Positions 4,852-52,850 of a stretch of DNA of 64,000 bases are shown piece after piece. The notes under the pieces were generated by a model. The model was not told the DNA's origin and did no database searches. It saw nothing but the letters and a program-made list of their open reading frames with translations. Both the position numbers and the translations under genes were made by a program. This DNA is from Candidatus Uhrbacteria bacterium (GTDB taxonomy: Bacteria > Patescibacteriota > Patescibacteriia > UBA9934), in NCBI GenBank assembly GCA_903827265.1, contig CAIKHN010000024.1, positions 3,332 to 67,331 of the forward strand. The letters are read 5' to 3'. Each line of letters opens with the position of its first letter. The first letter of the stretch is position 1.

Positions 4852-5007
4852 ATGTCCCAAGACAATCTCATCAAATTGGAGTGCACCGTCTGTAAGTCCT
4901 TGAACTACCGTTCTTCCAAGAACAAGAAAATCCTCAAGGATCGCCTGGAACTCAAAAAGTTCTGCGAAGGCTGCCGAAAGCACCAAATGCACAAAGAAAC
5001 GAAGTAG
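4852..5007 (+). CDS. rpmG: 50S ribosomal protein L33
   Basis: 51-aa ORF absent from the ORF track because it is under 60 aa: [51 protein letters not shown]. It carries the CxxC...CxxC zinc ribbon typical of L33. Confidence 0.85.
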
Positions 5008-5031
5008 CCCACGCTACTTCGTTCTTTTTTA
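5001..5031. terminator. bidirectional rho-independent terminator between convergent rpmG (+) and TPR gene (-)
   Basis: Perfect 8-bp stem gaagtagc/gctacttc with loop ccac, followed by a T-run on the + strand and an A-run upstream (T-run on the - strand). Confidence 0.6.
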
Positions 5032-5808
5032 TTTCTTCTCCGCAATCATTTCTTCAAACTCTGCGATCTTCTGATTATCTGGGTTCACTTCACGAAGGTG
5101 TTCGAGAGACTTCTTTGCCTCACTGATCTCCTCAATCTCGAGCGCAGCAGTAATGAAGAAATCGAGGTACTTTGGATTATTCGGGCTAATGGTTTTTGCT
5201 TTCTCGTAGAATCCGTATGCAGTCTTCATGTCGCCTTCTGCGGAGAAGACCTCTCCAAGCGCTGCAAGAACGCTTGCATCCTTTGGGGCAAGTTTTACAA
5301 GGAACTCAAGCGCCTCTTTTGCTTCGGCGTGTTGACCTTGCGACAAATACATTCGTCCGAGCGCTTCATAGGCCTGAACATTCTTTGGGTCATGCGAAAG
5401 TACCGCAACAAGCTCCTTCTCAGCGTCCTCGTATTTTCCAAGCACGATCGACTTCTTTGCTTCGTCGGTCATTCGGTGGAGTTCCCCAGCATCGATCTTT
5501 CCTGTTTTCTGCCGCTCGACATACTGACGTTCGAGCGCGGTAAGCTTTCCTGCAAGACGTCGGAACCATTCCTGGACAGACTTCACGATTGGCAAAACCG
5601 ATGTTTTCCAAACATTCTTTCCCTTCTCCTCAACCTGTCGCATCATGCGCTCTTCAAGAAGCGCATTCTTTGTTTCTCGTGTTCGCGCCTCTTTGCTCGA
5701 CATTGGATCGACAATAGAAAGTTGCGGAGCTTTCTGCTTCGCAATAACCACGATTGTTCCGAGCGAACCAAGAAATACTATCCAAAGCAATCCATCAAAG
5801 GCCGTCAT
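5029..5808 (-). CDS. TPR-repeat protein with N-terminal membrane anchor
   Basis: N-terminal hydrophobic helix followed by several 34-aa TPR-like repeats (AYEALGRMYLSQGQHAEAKEALEF...). Confidence 0.6.
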   Translation of the reverse strand: MTAFDGLLWIVFLGSLGTIVVIAKQKAPQLSIVDPMSSKEARTRETKNALLEERMMRQVEEKGKNVWKTSVLPIVKSVQEWFRRLAGKLTALERQYVERQKTGKIDAGELHRMTDEAKKSIVLGKYEDAEKELVAVLSHDPKNVQAYEALGRMYLSQGQHAEAKEALEFLVKLAPKDASVLAALGEVFSAEGDMKTAYGFYEKAKTISPNNPKYLDFFITAALEIEEISEAKKSLEHLREVNPDNQKIAEFEEMIAEKK

Positions 5809-8498: not shown

Positions 8499-9560
8499 TT
8501 ATTTCTTGGCGACCGTTGCGCTTCCGAGATACACATGCGTGCTGTCGGACGGATCGACGAGCAGTGCCATTGCAGCACGAGTTGATGGGAGATCGTTTGT
8601 TGTCCATGCGCTTCCTGCAGATGTTGAACGATTCACCGTTGAGTCCGTTCCGTAATAAATCACGTCGCCGTTCTCCGGCGCAATCGCGACCGAGTAAATA
8701 CGAACTTCCCCGCTTGCGGAAATCAGCGATACGCCAGACCACGTCGCACCCTTATCCTTTGAAAGGAGCAGGCCGTATTGCGTATTCATCACCACCGATG
8801 TTCCGTTTGCGTTCTGCGCAAATCCGAACACACGATCTGATGACTTGTAATCCTTTAACGTCTTCTCAAAGCTTACCCACGTTGCGCCACCGTCTGTTGT
8901 GCGTTGCAAACCACTTGTTTTTGTTCCAACAAAGATAATTCTACTGTCGGCTCCACTCACAGCAATCGCCGTTACCGCAGAATCCGTTCGTGAAAGTGTT
9001 GTCCAGCTTGCTCCACCGTCGACGGAACGAATCACGTCGCCAGCAGATGTTCCAACCCACACAATGTTTGGGTCGTACCAATCAAGCGCGAGCGCGGTCA
9101 CTGATTCCTTTGCTCGGCTCTCGACATATGCGCCAGTTGTGAATGAACGTCCGCAATCCGTCGTCTTCATGACACGATCAGTCTTTGCGACAAAGTACGT
9201 ACACACATCTTTCGAGCTCACCGCAATCGAGAGTATGGCTCCCGTATTTGCCATCGGCTCTTCTGGACGCTGCCACGATGCACCGCCGTCAAGAGAATAG
9301 AACATGCCGTTCGCAGCAGTACCAGCGTATATCGCTGAACTATCCTGCGGATCAATTGCGAATGTCGTCACATCAACATTCTCCAATGAACTTGTTCCCG
9401 TGGCTGTCGGAACAACAGCAGTCTGCTCCCACGACGCCGTTGCGTCTGTCGACTGCCAAATTCCTCCAGACGTGACCGCGGTACTTCCACCTCCAAGGCA
9501 CCCTGCTCCTGTCAATGTCAGCGCGGCAATTGCGGCGCCGAAACGAAAAAGTTTATTCAT
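8499..9560 (-). CDS. secreted BNR/Asp-box repeat beta-propeller protein
   Basis: Signal peptide and at least 5 Asp-box repeats (DGGASW, DGGATW, DKGATW, SAGSAW). Confidence 0.7.
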   Translation of the reverse strand: MNKLFRFGAAIAALTLTGAGCLGGGSTAVTSGGIWQSTDATASWEQTAVVPTATGTSSLENVDVTTFAIDPQDSSAIYAGTAANGMFYSLDGGASWQRPEEPMANTGAILSIAVSSKDVCTYFVAKTDRVMKTTDCGRSFTTGAYVESRAKESVTALALDWYDPNIVWVGTSAGDVIRSVDGGASWTTLSRTDSAVTAIAVSGADSRIIFVGTKTSGLQRTTDGGATWVSFEKTLKDYKSSDRVFGFAQNANGTSVVMNTQYGLLLSKDKGATWSGVSLISASGEVRIYSVAIAPENGDVIYYGTDSTVNRSTSAGSAWTTNDLPSTRAAMALLVDPSDSTHVYLGSATVAKK

Positions 9561-10308
9561 ACTTCCCTAATTGTAGCGCAAGTTGCTCAAAGGCGATTGT
9601 GGAATTCCCATTTGCGGCTATTCGCTCTCGCGTTTTGAGAATTGCATCGAAGGCTTTCGCGGATACCCGACCTTGGCGTTTGAGCTCGACAGCAAGAGCA
9701 GCAAGCAGATCGTCAACATCAAGAACGTCACGTTTTCCAAGGCTTTGCGCAGCTTTTAATCGATCAACAAGCGATGACGATGTGAGGTTTTTCACGTCAT
9801 CGAGACATTCAGGAGAAACGGTACGATCAGGATTCGGTGCAAACGGAATAGTAACGATTCGCGAGAGCACGGTTGGCAACATCGCCGAAAGCTCATGAAC
9901 AACAAGAATGACGACAGTCTTCCCCACCGGTTCCTCAAGTGTTTTGAGGAGGGCGTTCTGCGCTGCAGTCGACATCACATTCGCATCGTCAAAAATCGCC
10001 ACCGTTTGACCATGAATCGCCGACTGGCCGAGCCGAGTCAGCGCATCGCGGATGTCGTCCAAGTCATATGCTTTCGACCCTGAATCACGCACAATCGGCG
10101 CCATCGAAATAAAGTCCGGATGACGCGAAAGGTCGTCGTTCGACACGCCAAGAAGCGCCGCGGCAAGCGCTCGAGCAACCATCGATTTTCCAGAATGTTC
10201 AGCTCCAGCAAACACTAAACCCTGCGGGACAGACCCCCGCTCAAGCATGCCGAAAAGTGCCGAAATCTGCTGCTTATTGCCCGAAATATGCGAAAAGTGA
10301 TCCATCAT
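9553..10308 (-). CDS. holB: DNA polymerase III delta' subunit (AAA+ clamp-loader)
   Basis: AAA+ fold with a degenerate Walker A (FAGAEHSGKSMVA) and a box VII region, typical of delta' rather than tau/gamma. Length 251 aa. Confidence 0.65.
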   Translation of the reverse strand: MMDHFSHISGNKQQISALFGMLERGSVPQGLVFAGAEHSGKSMVARALAAALLGVSNDDLSRHPDFISMAPIVRDSGSKAYDLDDIRDALTRLGQSAIHGQTVAIFDDANVMSTAAQNALLKTLEEPVGKTVVILVVHELSAMLPTVLSRIVTIPFAPNPDRTVSPECLDDVKNLTSSSLVDRLKAAQSLGKRDVLDVDDLLAALAVELKRQGRVSAKAFDAILKTRERIAANGNSTIAFEQLALQLGKYE

Positions 10309-10312
10309 ATGC

Positions 10313-10341
10313 TTGACTTTTCTGCGATTTTCTGCTATTCT
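10313..10341 (+). promoter_or_regulatory. sigma70-type promoter (TTGACT, 17 nt, TATTCT) reading toward the candidate ncRNA
   Basis: -35 TTGACT at 10313-10318, exact 17-nt spacer, -10 TATTCT at 10336-10341. It lies divergent from the holB start codon. Confidence 0.5.
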
Positions 10342-10346
10342 ACCCG

Positions 10347-10624
10347 GTTCGCTTCGTTTCCGATAGGAGATGAACGTACAGATACAGAGAACGTCAGAAT
10401 TCAGATGTTGTCTGTAGATATCTGGAGGCGGAGAGATGGTTATTGTCCACGGGTAAATTCGTGCACTCTAACCGACACGCCAGCGGACGACAGGGTTTCG
10501 ACTCTCCCGTTCCACAGAGGTGGGTCATGGCGTACATCAACTTCGGCTGATCACTTCGCCCGATCCCCTCCAGTATTGTATAGAGAACACAAAACTCCCA
10601 GGCCATGGCCTGGGAGTTTTGTTT
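10347..10624 (+). ncRNA. candidate small RNA of unknown class, about 280 nt
   Basis: Bounded by a near-consensus promoter upstream and a perfect 30-nt palindromic terminator plus T-run downstream. The only ORF across it (10288..10626) begins before the promoter, ends inside the terminator, has no RBS and an R/W/P-rich translation. Confidence 0.4.
10591..10624 (+). terminator. intrinsic terminator (perfect 30-nt palindrome plus T-run)
   Basis: aaaactcccaggccatggcctgggagtttt followed by gttt. Confidence 0.7.
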
Positions 10625-10633
10625 GAACCTGAT

Positions 10634-11520
10634 GGGGTCAGGTCTTGAATCTATGCATTTTTAAAACTCTAAAAACAGTTGAATAATGCAAGTGAAGATG
10701 TCGTGCGACAACTGATTGACTATATCCGCATTGCTCAACAGCAAAACGTATAACGCTATTTCTCTCGTCTCTCTTCAAGCGCCGAGAAAACATATCTTCT
10801 AAATTCGGCCGCCCGATCATTCGTTGCTCTCTTGGGATTTCTTCACCAATATCGTCGACTTGCCAATTTTCCGCTTCGAAAATAAATTGTTCAGAACCAA
10901 GAATTTGATGTCTTGCCTCCTTGAAAGGCGAGAGCGGCGGTATCTTTTCAAGCACAAAATCCAGATATCGTTTCTGAGCCAACATTTGATTCGTCGAAAA
11001 CCGAATAAGAATATCGCTGATTGTGAGAAAATTGCGTTTTCTCGCCAATCCGGCAGTCTGACGAAAGCTACTCCAATCGTACGCAGCCGGTTCTTTTACA
11101 ATCCCTGCTCGAACAGGATTCAGCACGATATACCGTGCAACAGTGACAAGATAAAAAATATTCTCTATAAGAAAGGCCTTGAATCTTCCTTGAAACAAAT
11201 GGCCTACGCGCCGATATCGTTCGTTGATTTTTTGCGCATATGTTCCGTTAAGCTGCCGCATACCCTCCGAAAGATTTCCATCAGGTGTTTCAATGAGCAA
11301 ATGATAATGATTCCCCATCAAACAATATGCATGACAAATCCAATGATGAGTATGAATCGTTCTATCAAGGATTCTTAAAAATAAGCGTCTGTCTGCGTCA
11401 CAAAAATATATGTCCTTTTTCTCGTTTCCACGAACCGTTATGTGATATGTAGCTCCCGGGAATGCTATTCGTAATGGTCGAGACATAATAAAAAATGCAT
11501 AAATTCAAGACCTGACCCCT
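10634..11520 (-). mobile_element. IS200/IS605-superfamily or RAYT-like element carrying a single HUH (Y1) transposase gene, flanked by inverted repeats
   Basis: A 17-bp perfect inverted repeat ggggtcaggtcttgaat at 10634-10650 matches its reverse complement at 11504-11520. The repeat extends to about 29 bp with one mismatch (…ctatgcattttt / aaaaatgcataaatt…), and a single transposase ORF sits between the two ends. Confidence 0.6.
10638..11486 (-). CDS. HUH-family Y1 transposase (IS200-like / REP-associated tyrosine transposase-like) with C-terminal HTH extension
   Basis: HuH motif GNHYHLLIETP, a conserved ARYIVLNPVRAGIV block and catalytic-Tyr region. The C-terminal roughly 100 aa is HTH-like (FAVEQCGYSQSVVARHLHLHYSTVFRVLK). 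Confidence 0.75.
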   Translation of the reverse strand: MSRPLRIAFPGATYHITVRGNEKKDIYFCDADRRLFLRILDRTIHTHHWICHAYCLMGNHYHLLIETPDGNLSEGMRQLNGTYAQKINERYRRVGHLFQGRFKAFLIENIFYLVTVARYIVLNPVRAGIVKEPAAYDWSSFRQTAGLARKRNFLTISDILIRFSTNQMLAQKRYLDFVLEKIPPLSPFKEARHQILGSEQFIFEAENWQVDDIGEEIPREQRMIGRPNLEDMFSRRLKRDERNSVIRFAVEQCGYSQSVVARHLHLHYSTVFRVLKMHRFKT

Positions 11521-13479: not shown

Positions 13480-14487
13480 TTATGCCGTAAATAAGCTTCG
13501 TTTGTAAGACTCAAGATTCTCGAGAGCGAGACCGGTGCCTTTTGCTACACAAAGCTGCGGATCCTCGGCGAGATACGTTGGCACGCCGGTGGCTTCAGCA
13601 ATAAGGCGATCAAGATTACGGAGCTGTGACGATCCGCCGGAAATGACGATGCCCTTATCCATCACGTCAGCAGAAAGTTCTGGAGGCGTAACGGTAAGCA
13701 CTTCTTTAAGCGTTGAAAGAATTCCTTCAAGGAGTGGCTGGATCGCCTCGGTGACGTCGTCCGATGAAACTTCGATGATCTTTGGAAGACCGGTAATCAT
13801 GTCGCGACCTTTTACCTCCATGCGAAGTTTATCGGTAAGATACATCGCCGATCCGCAACGAATCTTAATGTCTTCAGCGGTGCGTTCACCAATCGCGAGT
13901 CCGTACGTTCGACGGATGTGTTCCATGATGGCGTGATCCATTTTTACTCCGCCAATACGAACAGATGTCGAAGCAACGATTCCACCAAGAGAAATAACCG
14001 CCATTTCGCTCGTTCCTCCACCAATTTCCACAATCATGTGGCCGTTTGGCGAACCAATAGGAATATTCGCGCCAATCGCGGCGACAATTGGCTGTTTAAT
14101 GATGTACGCGCTTTTTGCACCAGCAGAAATTGCTGCATCAACTACCGCCCGACGTTCAGTCGATGTGATTCCACCCGGAACTGCGATCATGACTTCCGGA
14201 CGGAAAATACGAACTCCACCAAGCGCCTTGTTAATAAAATACCGAAGCATCGCTTCCGTTGTTTTGTAGTCGGCAATAACGCCATCTTTCAACGGACGAC
14301 GCGCAATAATGCTGTCTGGCGTTCTGCCAAGCATGTCTTTTGCCTCCTTCCCAACAGCAAGGACGGTTTTGTCGATTTTCGAAACCGCAACAACAGAAGG
14401 TTCGTTAATAATAATGCCTCGTTTTGGAACGTAAACAAGGACGGTTGTCGTCCCAAGATCGATCCCAATCTTTTTATTAAACATCAT
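13480..14487 (-). CDS. mreB: rod shape-determining protein MreB
   Basis: Actin-fold ATPase motifs IGIDLGTTT, GGGTSE and IVISGGSS. Length 335 aa. Confidence 0.9.
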   Translation of the reverse strand: MMFNKKIGIDLGTTTVLVYVPKRGIIINEPSVVAVSKIDKTVLAVGKEAKDMLGRTPDSIIARRPLKDGVIADYKTTEAMLRYFINKALGGVRIFRPEVMIAVPGGITSTERRAVVDAAISAGAKSAYIIKQPIVAAIGANIPIGSPNGHMIVEIGGGTSEMAVISLGGIVASTSVRIGGVKMDHAIMEHIRRTYGLAIGERTAEDIKIRCGSAMYLTDKLRMEVKGRDMITGLPKIIEVSSDDVTEAIQPLLEGILSTLKEVLTVTPPELSADVMDKGIVISGGSSQLRNLDRLIAEATGVPTYLAEDPQLCVAKGTGLALENLESYKRSLFTA

Positions 14488-33095: not shown

Positions 33096-33221
33096 GAGAA
33101 CGCTCTAATTTTAGGCTAGTTTCGATGAACGTCGAGCAAAGTTTCCGAGGTGTACTTCTCGGTACATCGAGGAAATTTGCGATGATGTGAGTCGAAAATA
33201 GACAAAATTAGAGCGTTCTCT
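33096..33221. repeat. palindromic repeat, family B copy 1 (126 nt, perfect 17-bp terminal inverted repeats)
   Basis: Left end gagaacgctctaatttt and right end aaaattagagcgttctc are exact reverse complements. The interior is homologous to 52733-52850. Confidence 0.7.
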
Positions 33222-52709: not shown

Positions 52710-52732
52710 ATGAATATATCGAACACAGAGCA

Positions 52733-52850
52733 TTTGAGACCAGTTTCGATGAAGGTCGAGGAAATCTCGCGAGGCGTACTTCTCGGTACGTTGAGCGAAT
52801 TTCCGATGACCTGAATCGAAAATGGGCCAAATGAATGTGTTCGTCCTTTT
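52733..52850. repeat. family B repeat copy 2 (degenerate; lacks the left terminal repeat)
   Basis: cagtttcgatgaaggtcgaggaaatctcgcgaggcgtacttctcggtacgttgagcgaatttccgatgacctgaatcgaaaatgggc aligns with the interior of copy 1. It lies 24-140 nt upstream of the rpsB start. Confidence 0.55.

Follow-up and report, generated by a model that had tools for sequence, protein, structure and literature searches.

A probable structured RNA gene next to holB

The gap between two minus-strand genes, holB and a gene with a Y1_Tnp domain, at positions 10309-10637 of a 64,000-nucleotide (64-kb) stretch of Candidatus Uhrbacteria DNA (contig CAIKHN010000024.1; the whole stretch is called the window here), in all likelihood holds the gene for a stand-alone structured non-coding RNA of a new class, which would act through its three-dimensional fold, as a protein binder or a catalyst, and not through base pairing. 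The plus strand of the gap contains a promoter pattern at 10313-10341, about 280 nt of non-coding DNA and a palindromic hairpin at 10589-10622. Within it lies a conserved RNA core of 182 nt (10407..10588, plus strand), which was recovered with nhmmer and a covariance model and whose covariation supports a four-way junction. A sequence-only reading of the same DNA had seen a candidate small RNA of unrecognised class in this place, and it is the comparative data, that is synteny, covariation, strand and the absence of a conserved reading frame, that turn this guess into a gene. The extent of about 280 nt proposed there also stands, from a start near 10346 to a U-tract near 10628, but the conserved functional part is only the core, the leader being variable. 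Nothing akin to the RNA turned up in Rfam 15, in plasmid and phage collections or in the searchable literature, and we regard it as a new family; the claim to novelty covers the family and not its function.

The relatives were found by tracing holB homologs of 84% to 35% identity to their contigs, and at least 18 contigs encode an identical holB protein. All sampled sequences belong to one clade and were reached through synteny. MreB homologs at 95-99% identity carry the names 'Patescibacteria group' or 'Candidatus Uhrbacteria', and one of the relatives, L049, is an NCBI 'Candidatus Uhrbacteria' metagenome-assembled genome (MAG). The gene order is common to all of them, MreB, a GT4 glycosyltransferase, a TrmB-like regulator, a gap, holB, a BNR protein, RRF and an M16 peptidase, and the gap between TrmB and holB, 300 to 1900 nt, is large given such compact genomes. 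With the window gap as nhmmer query the core of about 182 nt was recovered in every relative; none of those sampled for this ultra-small groundwater bacterium of the Uhrbacteria-like Patescibacteria lacks it. In all 15 lineages whose flanks could be used, its place is between TrmB and holB and its strand is the one opposite holB, and on its 3' side every lineage has a terminator hairpin and then a convergent gene, either TrmB or Y1_Tnp.

The length of the core is 181-183 nt in 14 lineages, its identity to the window is 55-95%, and covariance model R1 scores the 14 at 128-208 bits. At the syntenic site of L076, a more distant lineage (MreB 87% identical), the model scores 33 bits (E = 4e-9) and the core version is 196 nt; folded alone, this homolog takes the same architecture with one extra small hairpin (z = -6.6). 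The core is single-copy, with one in the 64-kb window and one per relative locus. The 30 loci listed by a pattern scan of metagenomes were divided by nhmmer and the covariance model into five true homologs and 25 chance matches. The viral contigs scanned with the pattern GGAGG..GARAGATG..CTTYGGC gave 23 loci, all of them chance, and the sole result of a holB search of one-genome-per-species contigs was an unrelated Lentisphaerae locus.

Fold and covariation

The core is best described as a near-perfect four-helix junction whose linkers are just 2-nt AU sequences (10436-10437 and 10527-10528). It is closed by a stem of about 30 bp, in which 10407..10435 pairs with 10561..10588 (CGAUC, then CCUCCAG, then the P0 strand). 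This stem consists of P0 (10407-10419/10576-10588, with GUUGUCU at the 5' end and AGAGAAC at the 3' end), P1 (CUGGAGG/CCUCCAG, 10422-10428/10567-10573) and a P1 extension (GAGAG/CGAUC, 10431-10435/10561-10565), and it holds an invariant GGAGG/CCUCC helix and a tandem G.A pair. The extension, G-C, A-U, G.A, A.G and G-C as read from alignment A3, is less certain than the rest because its pairs are invariant or non-canonical; in L018 and L049 it is G-C, A.G, G.U, A-U and G-C instead. A kink-turn reading of the tandem G.A was rejected, since there is no 3-nt bulge and L018, L049 and L076 do not retain the G.A pairs.

Three arms leave the junction. P2 (10438-10473) is formed by 10438-42/10469-73 and 10448-52/10459-63 and has a GNRA-like cap, GUAA, which is GCAA in three lineages. 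The arm Px-P3 (10474-10526) directly abuts P2 and consists of the covarying Px (GACACGCC/GGUGGGUC, 10474-81/10519-26), a conserved internal loop (AGC / CCACAGAG) and P3 (10485-89/10508-13 and 10492-96/10501-05) with a UUCG loop at 10497-10500. P4 starts with GGCG/CGCC (10529-32/10557-60), abutting the P1 extension, and continues through an internal loop (UAC / CACUU) into AUCAAC/GCUGAU (10536-41/10546-51) with a UUCG loop at 10542-10545. A first model of P4, GGGUC with GAUCC, was dropped for Px, which is fully compensated in two lineages, being re-paired with other sequence as GGCGCAC/GUGCGUC in L018 and as GGCGUGCU/AGCGCGUC in L049.

The terminal loops are of GNRA and UUCG types and no conserved unpaired stretch exceeds about 7 nt. 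The invariant nucleotides are located in GGAGG/CCUCC and GAGAG/CGAUC, in the Px-P3 loop (AGC / CCACAGAG) and in the P4 loop with its 3' strand (UCACU), and L076, divergent as it is, still has the CUUCGG...UCACU motif of P4. Sequence variation is concentrated at the tips of the helices. Inserted sequence, too, is found only there or outside the core; L014, for example, has 125 nt inserted in the P3 loop.

RNAalifold, given a plain MAFFT alignment of 12 sequences, predicted 58 pairs, and 23 of these show compensatory double changes. The curated structure of 55 pairs was scored on this same unfitted alignment, A2: 95.4% of the cells are standard pairs and 25 of the 55 pairs change on both sides. 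Its covariation score is 0.345 as compared to 0.155 +/- 0.012 in shuffles, none of 500 of which reached it, and control structures with the 3' partners slid by 1-3 columns were only 32-45% paired, with scores of 0.02-0.09. Compensated pairs occur in every helix, and double compensatory changes were seen in 8 of 18 pairs in P0/P1, 8 of 10 in P2 and 3 of 9 in P4. The alignment of holB-adjacent orthologs proposed in the sequence-only reading has therewith revealed strong covariation. A blind search for further covarying columns, as in a pseudoknot, was swamped by the phylogenetic signal of the L018/L049 branch.

The strand can be read from the wobble pairs. Among the paired cells of a 14-sequence alignment there are 53 G.U or U.G and 7 A.C or C.A, and in the alignment of 12 sequences one G.U pair never varies; the excess of G.U over A.C places the selected structure on the plus strand, opposite holB. 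The promoter is conserved on the plus strand as well.

Promoter, leader and terminator

The -35 hexamer TTGACT (10313..10318, plus strand) lies 4 nt from the start codon of holB, which is on the opposite strand. After a 17-nt spacer follows an extended -10, TGcTATTCT (10333..10341, plus strand), with the TG at 10333-10334 and TATTCT at 10336-10341. This is the near-consensus promoter of the sequence-only reading, and it scores 9/12. By count the promoter pattern in this region is at chance level, 4 sites as compared to 3.7 +/- 2.1 in shuffles. The -35 is kept as TTGAC(A/T/G) in the window, L004, L029, L010, L012, L007, L017, L020 and L031, TGnTATTsT is conserved among the relatives, and the promoter is conserved together with a start sequence, ACCyGGTTCGCTTCG, in 10 related lineages. 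The L031 version, TTGACA-17-TGgTATTGT, has an extended -10 and scores 10/12.

The -10 region (10330-10345 in the window) also reads as a minus-strand -10 in every lineage despite its variation, as TATTCT/TAGAAT, TATTGT/TACAAT, TACTAT/TATAGT or TATCAT/TATGAT. A minus-strand -35 is not evident at this promoter, and holB is without an obvious Shine-Dalgarno sequence. The promoter may be a symmetric, bidirectional one that is shared with holB.

Transcription would start near 10346, at GGUUCGCUUCG, and the first part of the transcript would then be a variable leader of about 60 nt (10346..10406, plus strand). Measured from the conserved start to the core, the leader ranges from about 45 nt in L010 to about 900 nt in L007, and in most relatives it contains a dispersed hairpin repeat of about 125 nt. 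The minimum free energy (MFE) fold has a 5' hairpin with a GAUA loop at about 10351-10376 and a second leader hairpin at 10384-10415, which resembles an internally deleted remnant of the repeat. The 3' arm of the second hairpin overlaps P0 and is the same GUUGUCU, so the leader hairpin and P0 are mutually exclusive. Covariation in L010, L035, L018 and L049 backs P0 over the leader hairpin. The competition is not universal, because in L007 and L035 each of the two competing strands has a copy to itself and the upstream copy is absent from L010, L018, L049 and L076. It may guide folding, provide a stem for processing or have come about by chance through an insertion.

Directly after the core comes an intrinsic terminator (10589..10628, plus strand) with the U-tract GUUUUGUUUG. 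Its hairpin, ACAAAACTCCCAGGCC-ATGG-GGCCTGGGAGTTTTGT, has 15 pairs and a 4-nt loop, and occurs once in 64 kb where none is expected by chance. The sequence-only reading had described a perfect palindromic terminator of 30 nt followed by a T-run; the 15-bp palindrome is there and is unique, but the hairpin measures 34 nt and the U-run lies partly within its stem (GGGAGUUUUGUUUG). As the hairpin is symmetric, it would also serve the convergent minus-strand gene. Each homolog has its own, unrelated hairpin and U-run within a few nt of the last base of the core.

In L020 (540-607) and L031 (6079-6125) the terminator hairpin is lengthened, with the core-terminal AGAGAAC pairing with GUUYUCU after the U-run. 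The 7-mer AGAGAAC can in these two enter three alternative helices: the leader hairpin, P0 and the base of the terminator. It was also observed that the short-read contigs L003, L005 and L006 end inside or at the palindromic terminator after the RNA, where the perfect inverted repeat has probably interrupted the assembly.

Several points weigh against the interpretation as a folded RNA gene. The thermodynamic z-score of the core alone is a modest -2.4, and it is the same on both strands, so the case rests on comparative evidence and not on folding energy. The outer 7 bp of P0 compete with the leader hairpin, which is the one that the MFE fold of the full transcript prefers. Symmetric terminators do not by themselves prove transcription of the plus strand, and support the 3' end only. 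Furthermore, the sequences are from one clade and the effective sequence number of covariance model R1 is 1.22, which means that some of the apparent covariation is shared ancestry. The proposed fold-dependent mode of action, as a ribonucleoprotein (RNP) or catalytic core, is read from the anatomy of the RNA.

Comparison with known RNA families

The 4227 covariance models of Rfam 15 were searched at the gathering threshold and at E<=10. At the gathering threshold no family was found in the whole window or in the 14 homologs, and at E<=10 the segment 10200-10750 (551 nt) and the divergent homologs gave only spurious matches to the terminator hairpin. A BLAST of plasmids and phages gave no match to the core, and nothing relevant was found in the literature on structured RNAs of the Candidate Phyla Radiation (CPR) or on the sequence itself. 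The exclusion by eye of transfer-messenger RNA (tmRNA), RNase P, signal recognition particle (SRP) and 6S RNA in the sequence-only reading was borne out by ARAGORN and by Rfam at both thresholds.

A tmRNA has an acceptor stem with G3.U70, a 3' CCA and a T-arm, and a tag frame with a resume codon and a stop, flanked by pseudoknots. ARAGORN finds neither the standard nor the permuted form, no tmRNA model matches at E<=10, no conserved frame could encode a tag, and the ends of the core pair as GUUGUCU/AGAGAAC with the terminator directly after. A T-arm reading of GGGUUUCGACUC was rejected, since this is a 5-bp stem with a UUCG tetraloop that covaries to CUCG, CUUG and UUUG variants.

In RNase P the P4 pseudoknot is built from the universally conserved regions CR-I (..AGGAAAGUCC..) and CR-V (..ACAGAA..GGCUUA..). 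These sequences are absent from the core, no Rfam RNase P model (types A, B, archaeal and T) matches, and the junction linkers of only 2 nt leave no free strands for such a pseudoknot. The nested order of helices, a long closing stem, a hairpin, a stem with an inner domain and one or two hairpins, is like that of the RNase P catalytic domain, but the purine-rich conserved strand precedes the first hairpin here rather than following it. Domain IV of SRP RNA (4.5S, ffs) binds Ffh through a GNAR tetraloop and conserved symmetric and asymmetric loops; no SRP model matches at E<=10 and the domain IV motif was found in no arm.

Among the nearest known RNAs are those that, like this one, came out of comparative genomics, the raiA motif RNA, OLE, ROOL and GOLLD. 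They are multi-stem, stand-alone RNAs with conserved junction nucleotides and a function that cannot be deduced from sequence. The raiA RNA is of similar size, about 200 nt with four stems. Unlike these, the present RNA is from Patescibacteria and has no match in Rfam 15, and it is far smaller than OLE, ROOL and GOLLD. YrlA, the Y RNA bound by Ro/Rsr, also has a long stem formed by its ends and topped by a multi-armed module, and is a protein-bound scaffold. Its module is a tRNA mimic with T-loop and D-loop, whereas here there are only tetraloops of GNRA and UUCG type and no Rfam match. No rsr or TROVE protein gene was seen among the immediate neighbours (TrmB, holB, the BNR protein, RRF and the M16 peptidase). 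A leader or riboswitch is not indicated, as in every lineage nothing lies downstream on the RNA's own strand.

Alternative explanations

One alternative, which we consider unlikely, is a self-cleaving or other catalytic RNA, whose active site could arise by docking of the Px-P3 and P4 internal loops, the way it does in the hairpin ribozyme. The strict length, the compact junction, the invariant nucleotides in the internal loops and the generic tetraloop tips that accept insertions would all suit a catalyst, and the natural four-way-junction form of the hairpin ribozyme likewise has conserved internal loops in two adjacent arms of a four-helix junction. This likeness is purely architectural. 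No known ribozyme model matches, the sequence itself gives no match to the hairpin ribozyme and no cleavage-site signature was identified, and the distances from loop to junction differ (8 and 4 bp). In addition, the gene is a single-copy chromosomal one and not a satellite RNA, whereas most self-cleavers are associated with repeats.

Also unlikely is a diverged lineage version of a known housekeeping RNA, most plausibly 6S RNA (ssrS), which is about 184 nt and binds RNA polymerase by mimicking an open promoter. The sequences of 6S RNAs are notoriously divergent, so Rfam can miss them. The core fits 6S in its 182 nt and in its long, irregular closing helix, and the gene resembles 6S genes of about 180-200 nt in standing alone with a strong promoter and a terminator of its own. 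It has a housekeeping look too, single-copy at a fixed locus in every member of the clade. A 6S RNA is, however, a rod with a large single-stranded bubble at its centre. Here the centre is a four-way junction with 2-nt linkers and three arms supported by covariation; P2 and P4 are real hairpins in which compensatory changes are seen, and no 6S model matched at E<=10, neither on the 551 nt nor on the divergent homologs.

It is improbable that the conserved DNA is merely a cis-acting element of holB, a shared bidirectional promoter or an antisense leader, with no role in trans for the RNA. The short distance between the -35 and the holB start codon, the back-to-back layout conserved in about 10 lineages, the -10 region that can be read on both strands in each lineage and the fact that no other holB promoter was found would fit this explanation. 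But the distance from the holB start to the core is about 100 nt, and in L007, L046, L049 and L076, where other genes or inserts intervene, it is 800-1100 nt. The leader, which is the part beside holB, is the least conserved, and the G.U excess puts the selected structure on the other strand.

A feature at the DNA level, or a selfish one tied to the Y1 transposase and the hairpin repeat, e.g. a transposon end or an element like the repetitive extragenic palindromic (REP) sequences, is very improbable. The Y1_Tnp gene does abut the terminator in the window, L029 and L014, and the repeat flanks the RNA gene in many relatives and interrupts it in L014, where its basal helix is the same AGAGAAC/GUUCUCU sequence as P0. 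Contrary to an IS200/IS605 end or a REP/REPIN, the core occurs once in 64 kb; it is syntenic, has its own conserved promoter and is found in about 12 lineages without the Y1 gene, that is in most of them, and the asymmetry of the wobble pairs indicates selection on the RNA of one strand. AGAGAAC/GTTCTCT was also considered as a genome-wide insertion target and rejected, the 4 and 5 copies in the window, as compared to 4 expected, being no enrichment.

As for coding potential, the sequence-only reading had noted a single open reading frame (ORF) in the region. An ORF of 112 aa is present at 10288..10626, but ORFs of 70, 42 and 35 aa overlap the region too; none of the local ORFs has a Pfam match, and none is preserved among the relatives. 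In addition, GGAGG followed by 7-8 nt and AUG is invariant in 14 lineages (GUG in L076) and resembles a ribosome-binding site. The mini-ORF behind it stops in the P2 loop after 6 codons in 9 of 12 lineages and extends over 33 to more than 70 codons in L031, L035, L050 and L018, with a peptide that is not conserved. That either of these encodes a protein is hardly credible, since a 1-nt indel disrupts the 112-aa frame in 7 lineages, stop codons interrupt it in 5 and no frame is open in all; the GGAGG is paired to CCUCC and the AU of the AUG is a junction linker, its G opening P2.

Neighbouring genes, a dispersed repeat and an unusual tRNA

The minus-strand genes on the two sides of the gap are holB (9553..10308; PF13177, DNA_pol3_delta2) and, by domain match, an IS200-like Y1_Tnp gene with a C-terminal helix-turn-helix (HTH), 10638..11486, encoding 282 aa. 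A Y1_Tnp+HTH gene directly after the RNA terminator was observed in three lineages that are not adjacent, the window (10638-11486, minus strand), L029 (1709-2569) and L014 (1206-1913), and the C-terminal coding sequences of the three copies are homologous. The gene is missing at the same spot in L004, L010, L012, L017, L031 and others, a patchy distribution that can result either from repeated loss or from site-specific insertion beside the terminator hairpin.

G+C-rich ORFs of 166-264 aa were seen 5' of the core on the strand of the RNA in L007 (2493-2993, minus strand), L018 (2029-2823, minus strand) and L049 (1234-1845, minus strand). The one in L007 sits between the conserved promoter and the core, those of L007 and L018 have C-terminal tails rich in Lys, Arg and Ala, and some of the set are assigned to the opposite strand by gene callers. 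A conserved partner protein encoded upstream was considered and rejected, as the three ORFs are without detectable mutual homology.

The dispersed repeat of about 125 nt forms a long hairpin (..CCCAGUUUAG..CGAGACGUAC-loop-GUACGUUGAG..CAAACUGGG..). The window has two intergenic copies, 33096-33221 and 52731-52841, both on the plus strand. A relative locus can have as many as four copies, clustered to either side of the RNA gene and often inverted just downstream: in L012 at 2334-2454, 2498-2623, 2791-2916 and 4936-5055, in L029 at 1205-1331, 1522-1623 and 13578-13684, and in L014 at 2059-2182 and 2270-2395. Once, in L014, the repeat is inside the P3 loop of the RNA gene. Compensatory changes between the copies and an apparent tandem G.A motif were observed, and the repeat has no match in Rfam. 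It may be an element of the REP type or of the miniature inverted-repeat transposable element (MITE) type, and it may have a connection with the Y1 transposase-like gene.

Elsewhere in the window, at 41696-41768 (minus strand; Rfam tRNA, 46 bits), lies a tRNA gene that stands alone and has a TATAAT box and a terminator of its own. ARAGORN calls it tRNA-Asp with the anticodon AUC (A34), a great rarity among bacteria. Inspection by eye shows a G3.U70 acceptor pair and an A73 discriminator, the alanine identity set, and a C.C mismatch in the anticodon stem. The tRNA might serve in mistranslation or recoding, or be a pseudo-tRNA.

Possible role of the RNA

From the conserved elements we infer that the RNA is made and is stable. 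A promoter of sigma-70 type with an extended -10, back-to-back with holB, would start the transcript near 10346; after the variable leader of about 60 nt the core would fold into its compact four-way junction, and the intrinsic terminator directly behind would end the transcript. The folded core may then work as the RNA part of an RNP or as a ligand-binding or catalytic core. Given that its terminal loops are all structural tetraloops, antisense pairing through a conserved single-stranded seed, as in small RNAs of the Hfq type, seems unlikely. The tips are generic and tolerate insertions, and the invariant nucleotides are found in the junction-proximal helix and in the Px-P3 and P4 internal loops, which argues for an action that depends on the fold. 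A housekeeping role is suggested by the conserved strong promoter, by the single copy and by the fact that no sampled member of the clade lacks the gene.

A further step, which we take tentatively and with not quite even confidence, is to see here a new class of complex-folded RNA, in the tier of raiA and OLE at the time of their discovery, that is a lineage-wide housekeeping component of Uhrbacteria-like CPR and functions in catalysis or protein capture. A captured protein could possibly be a translation or ribosome-biogenesis factor, as hinted by the invariant GGAGG:CCUCC helix, which in several members lies within GAUCACCUCC, a sequence identical to the universally conserved 3' end of 16S rRNA. 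This 3' strand is exact in 4 lineages, has one mismatch in 8 and is lost in L018, L049 and L076, and mimicry of the 16S 3' end as a feature of the whole family was for that reason rejected.

A large part of bacterial diversity belongs to the Patescibacteria (CPR), which have tiny genomes and are almost all uncultured, and to our knowledge their repertoire of non-coding RNAs is essentially uncharted. We know of few RNAs of this size with a multi-arm fold that is invariant in length and supported by covariation, and comparable ones have historically proved to be ribozymes, riboswitch-like sensors or important RNP cores. With its 182 nt the core is small enough for synthesis in vitro and direct probing, which gives an experimental handle on organisms that cannot be cultured. 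A covariance model would annotate a gap of at least 300 nt that is now blank or mis-called as hypothetical ORFs in MAGs, and phylogenetic profiling with such a model would reveal the proteins that travel with the RNA.

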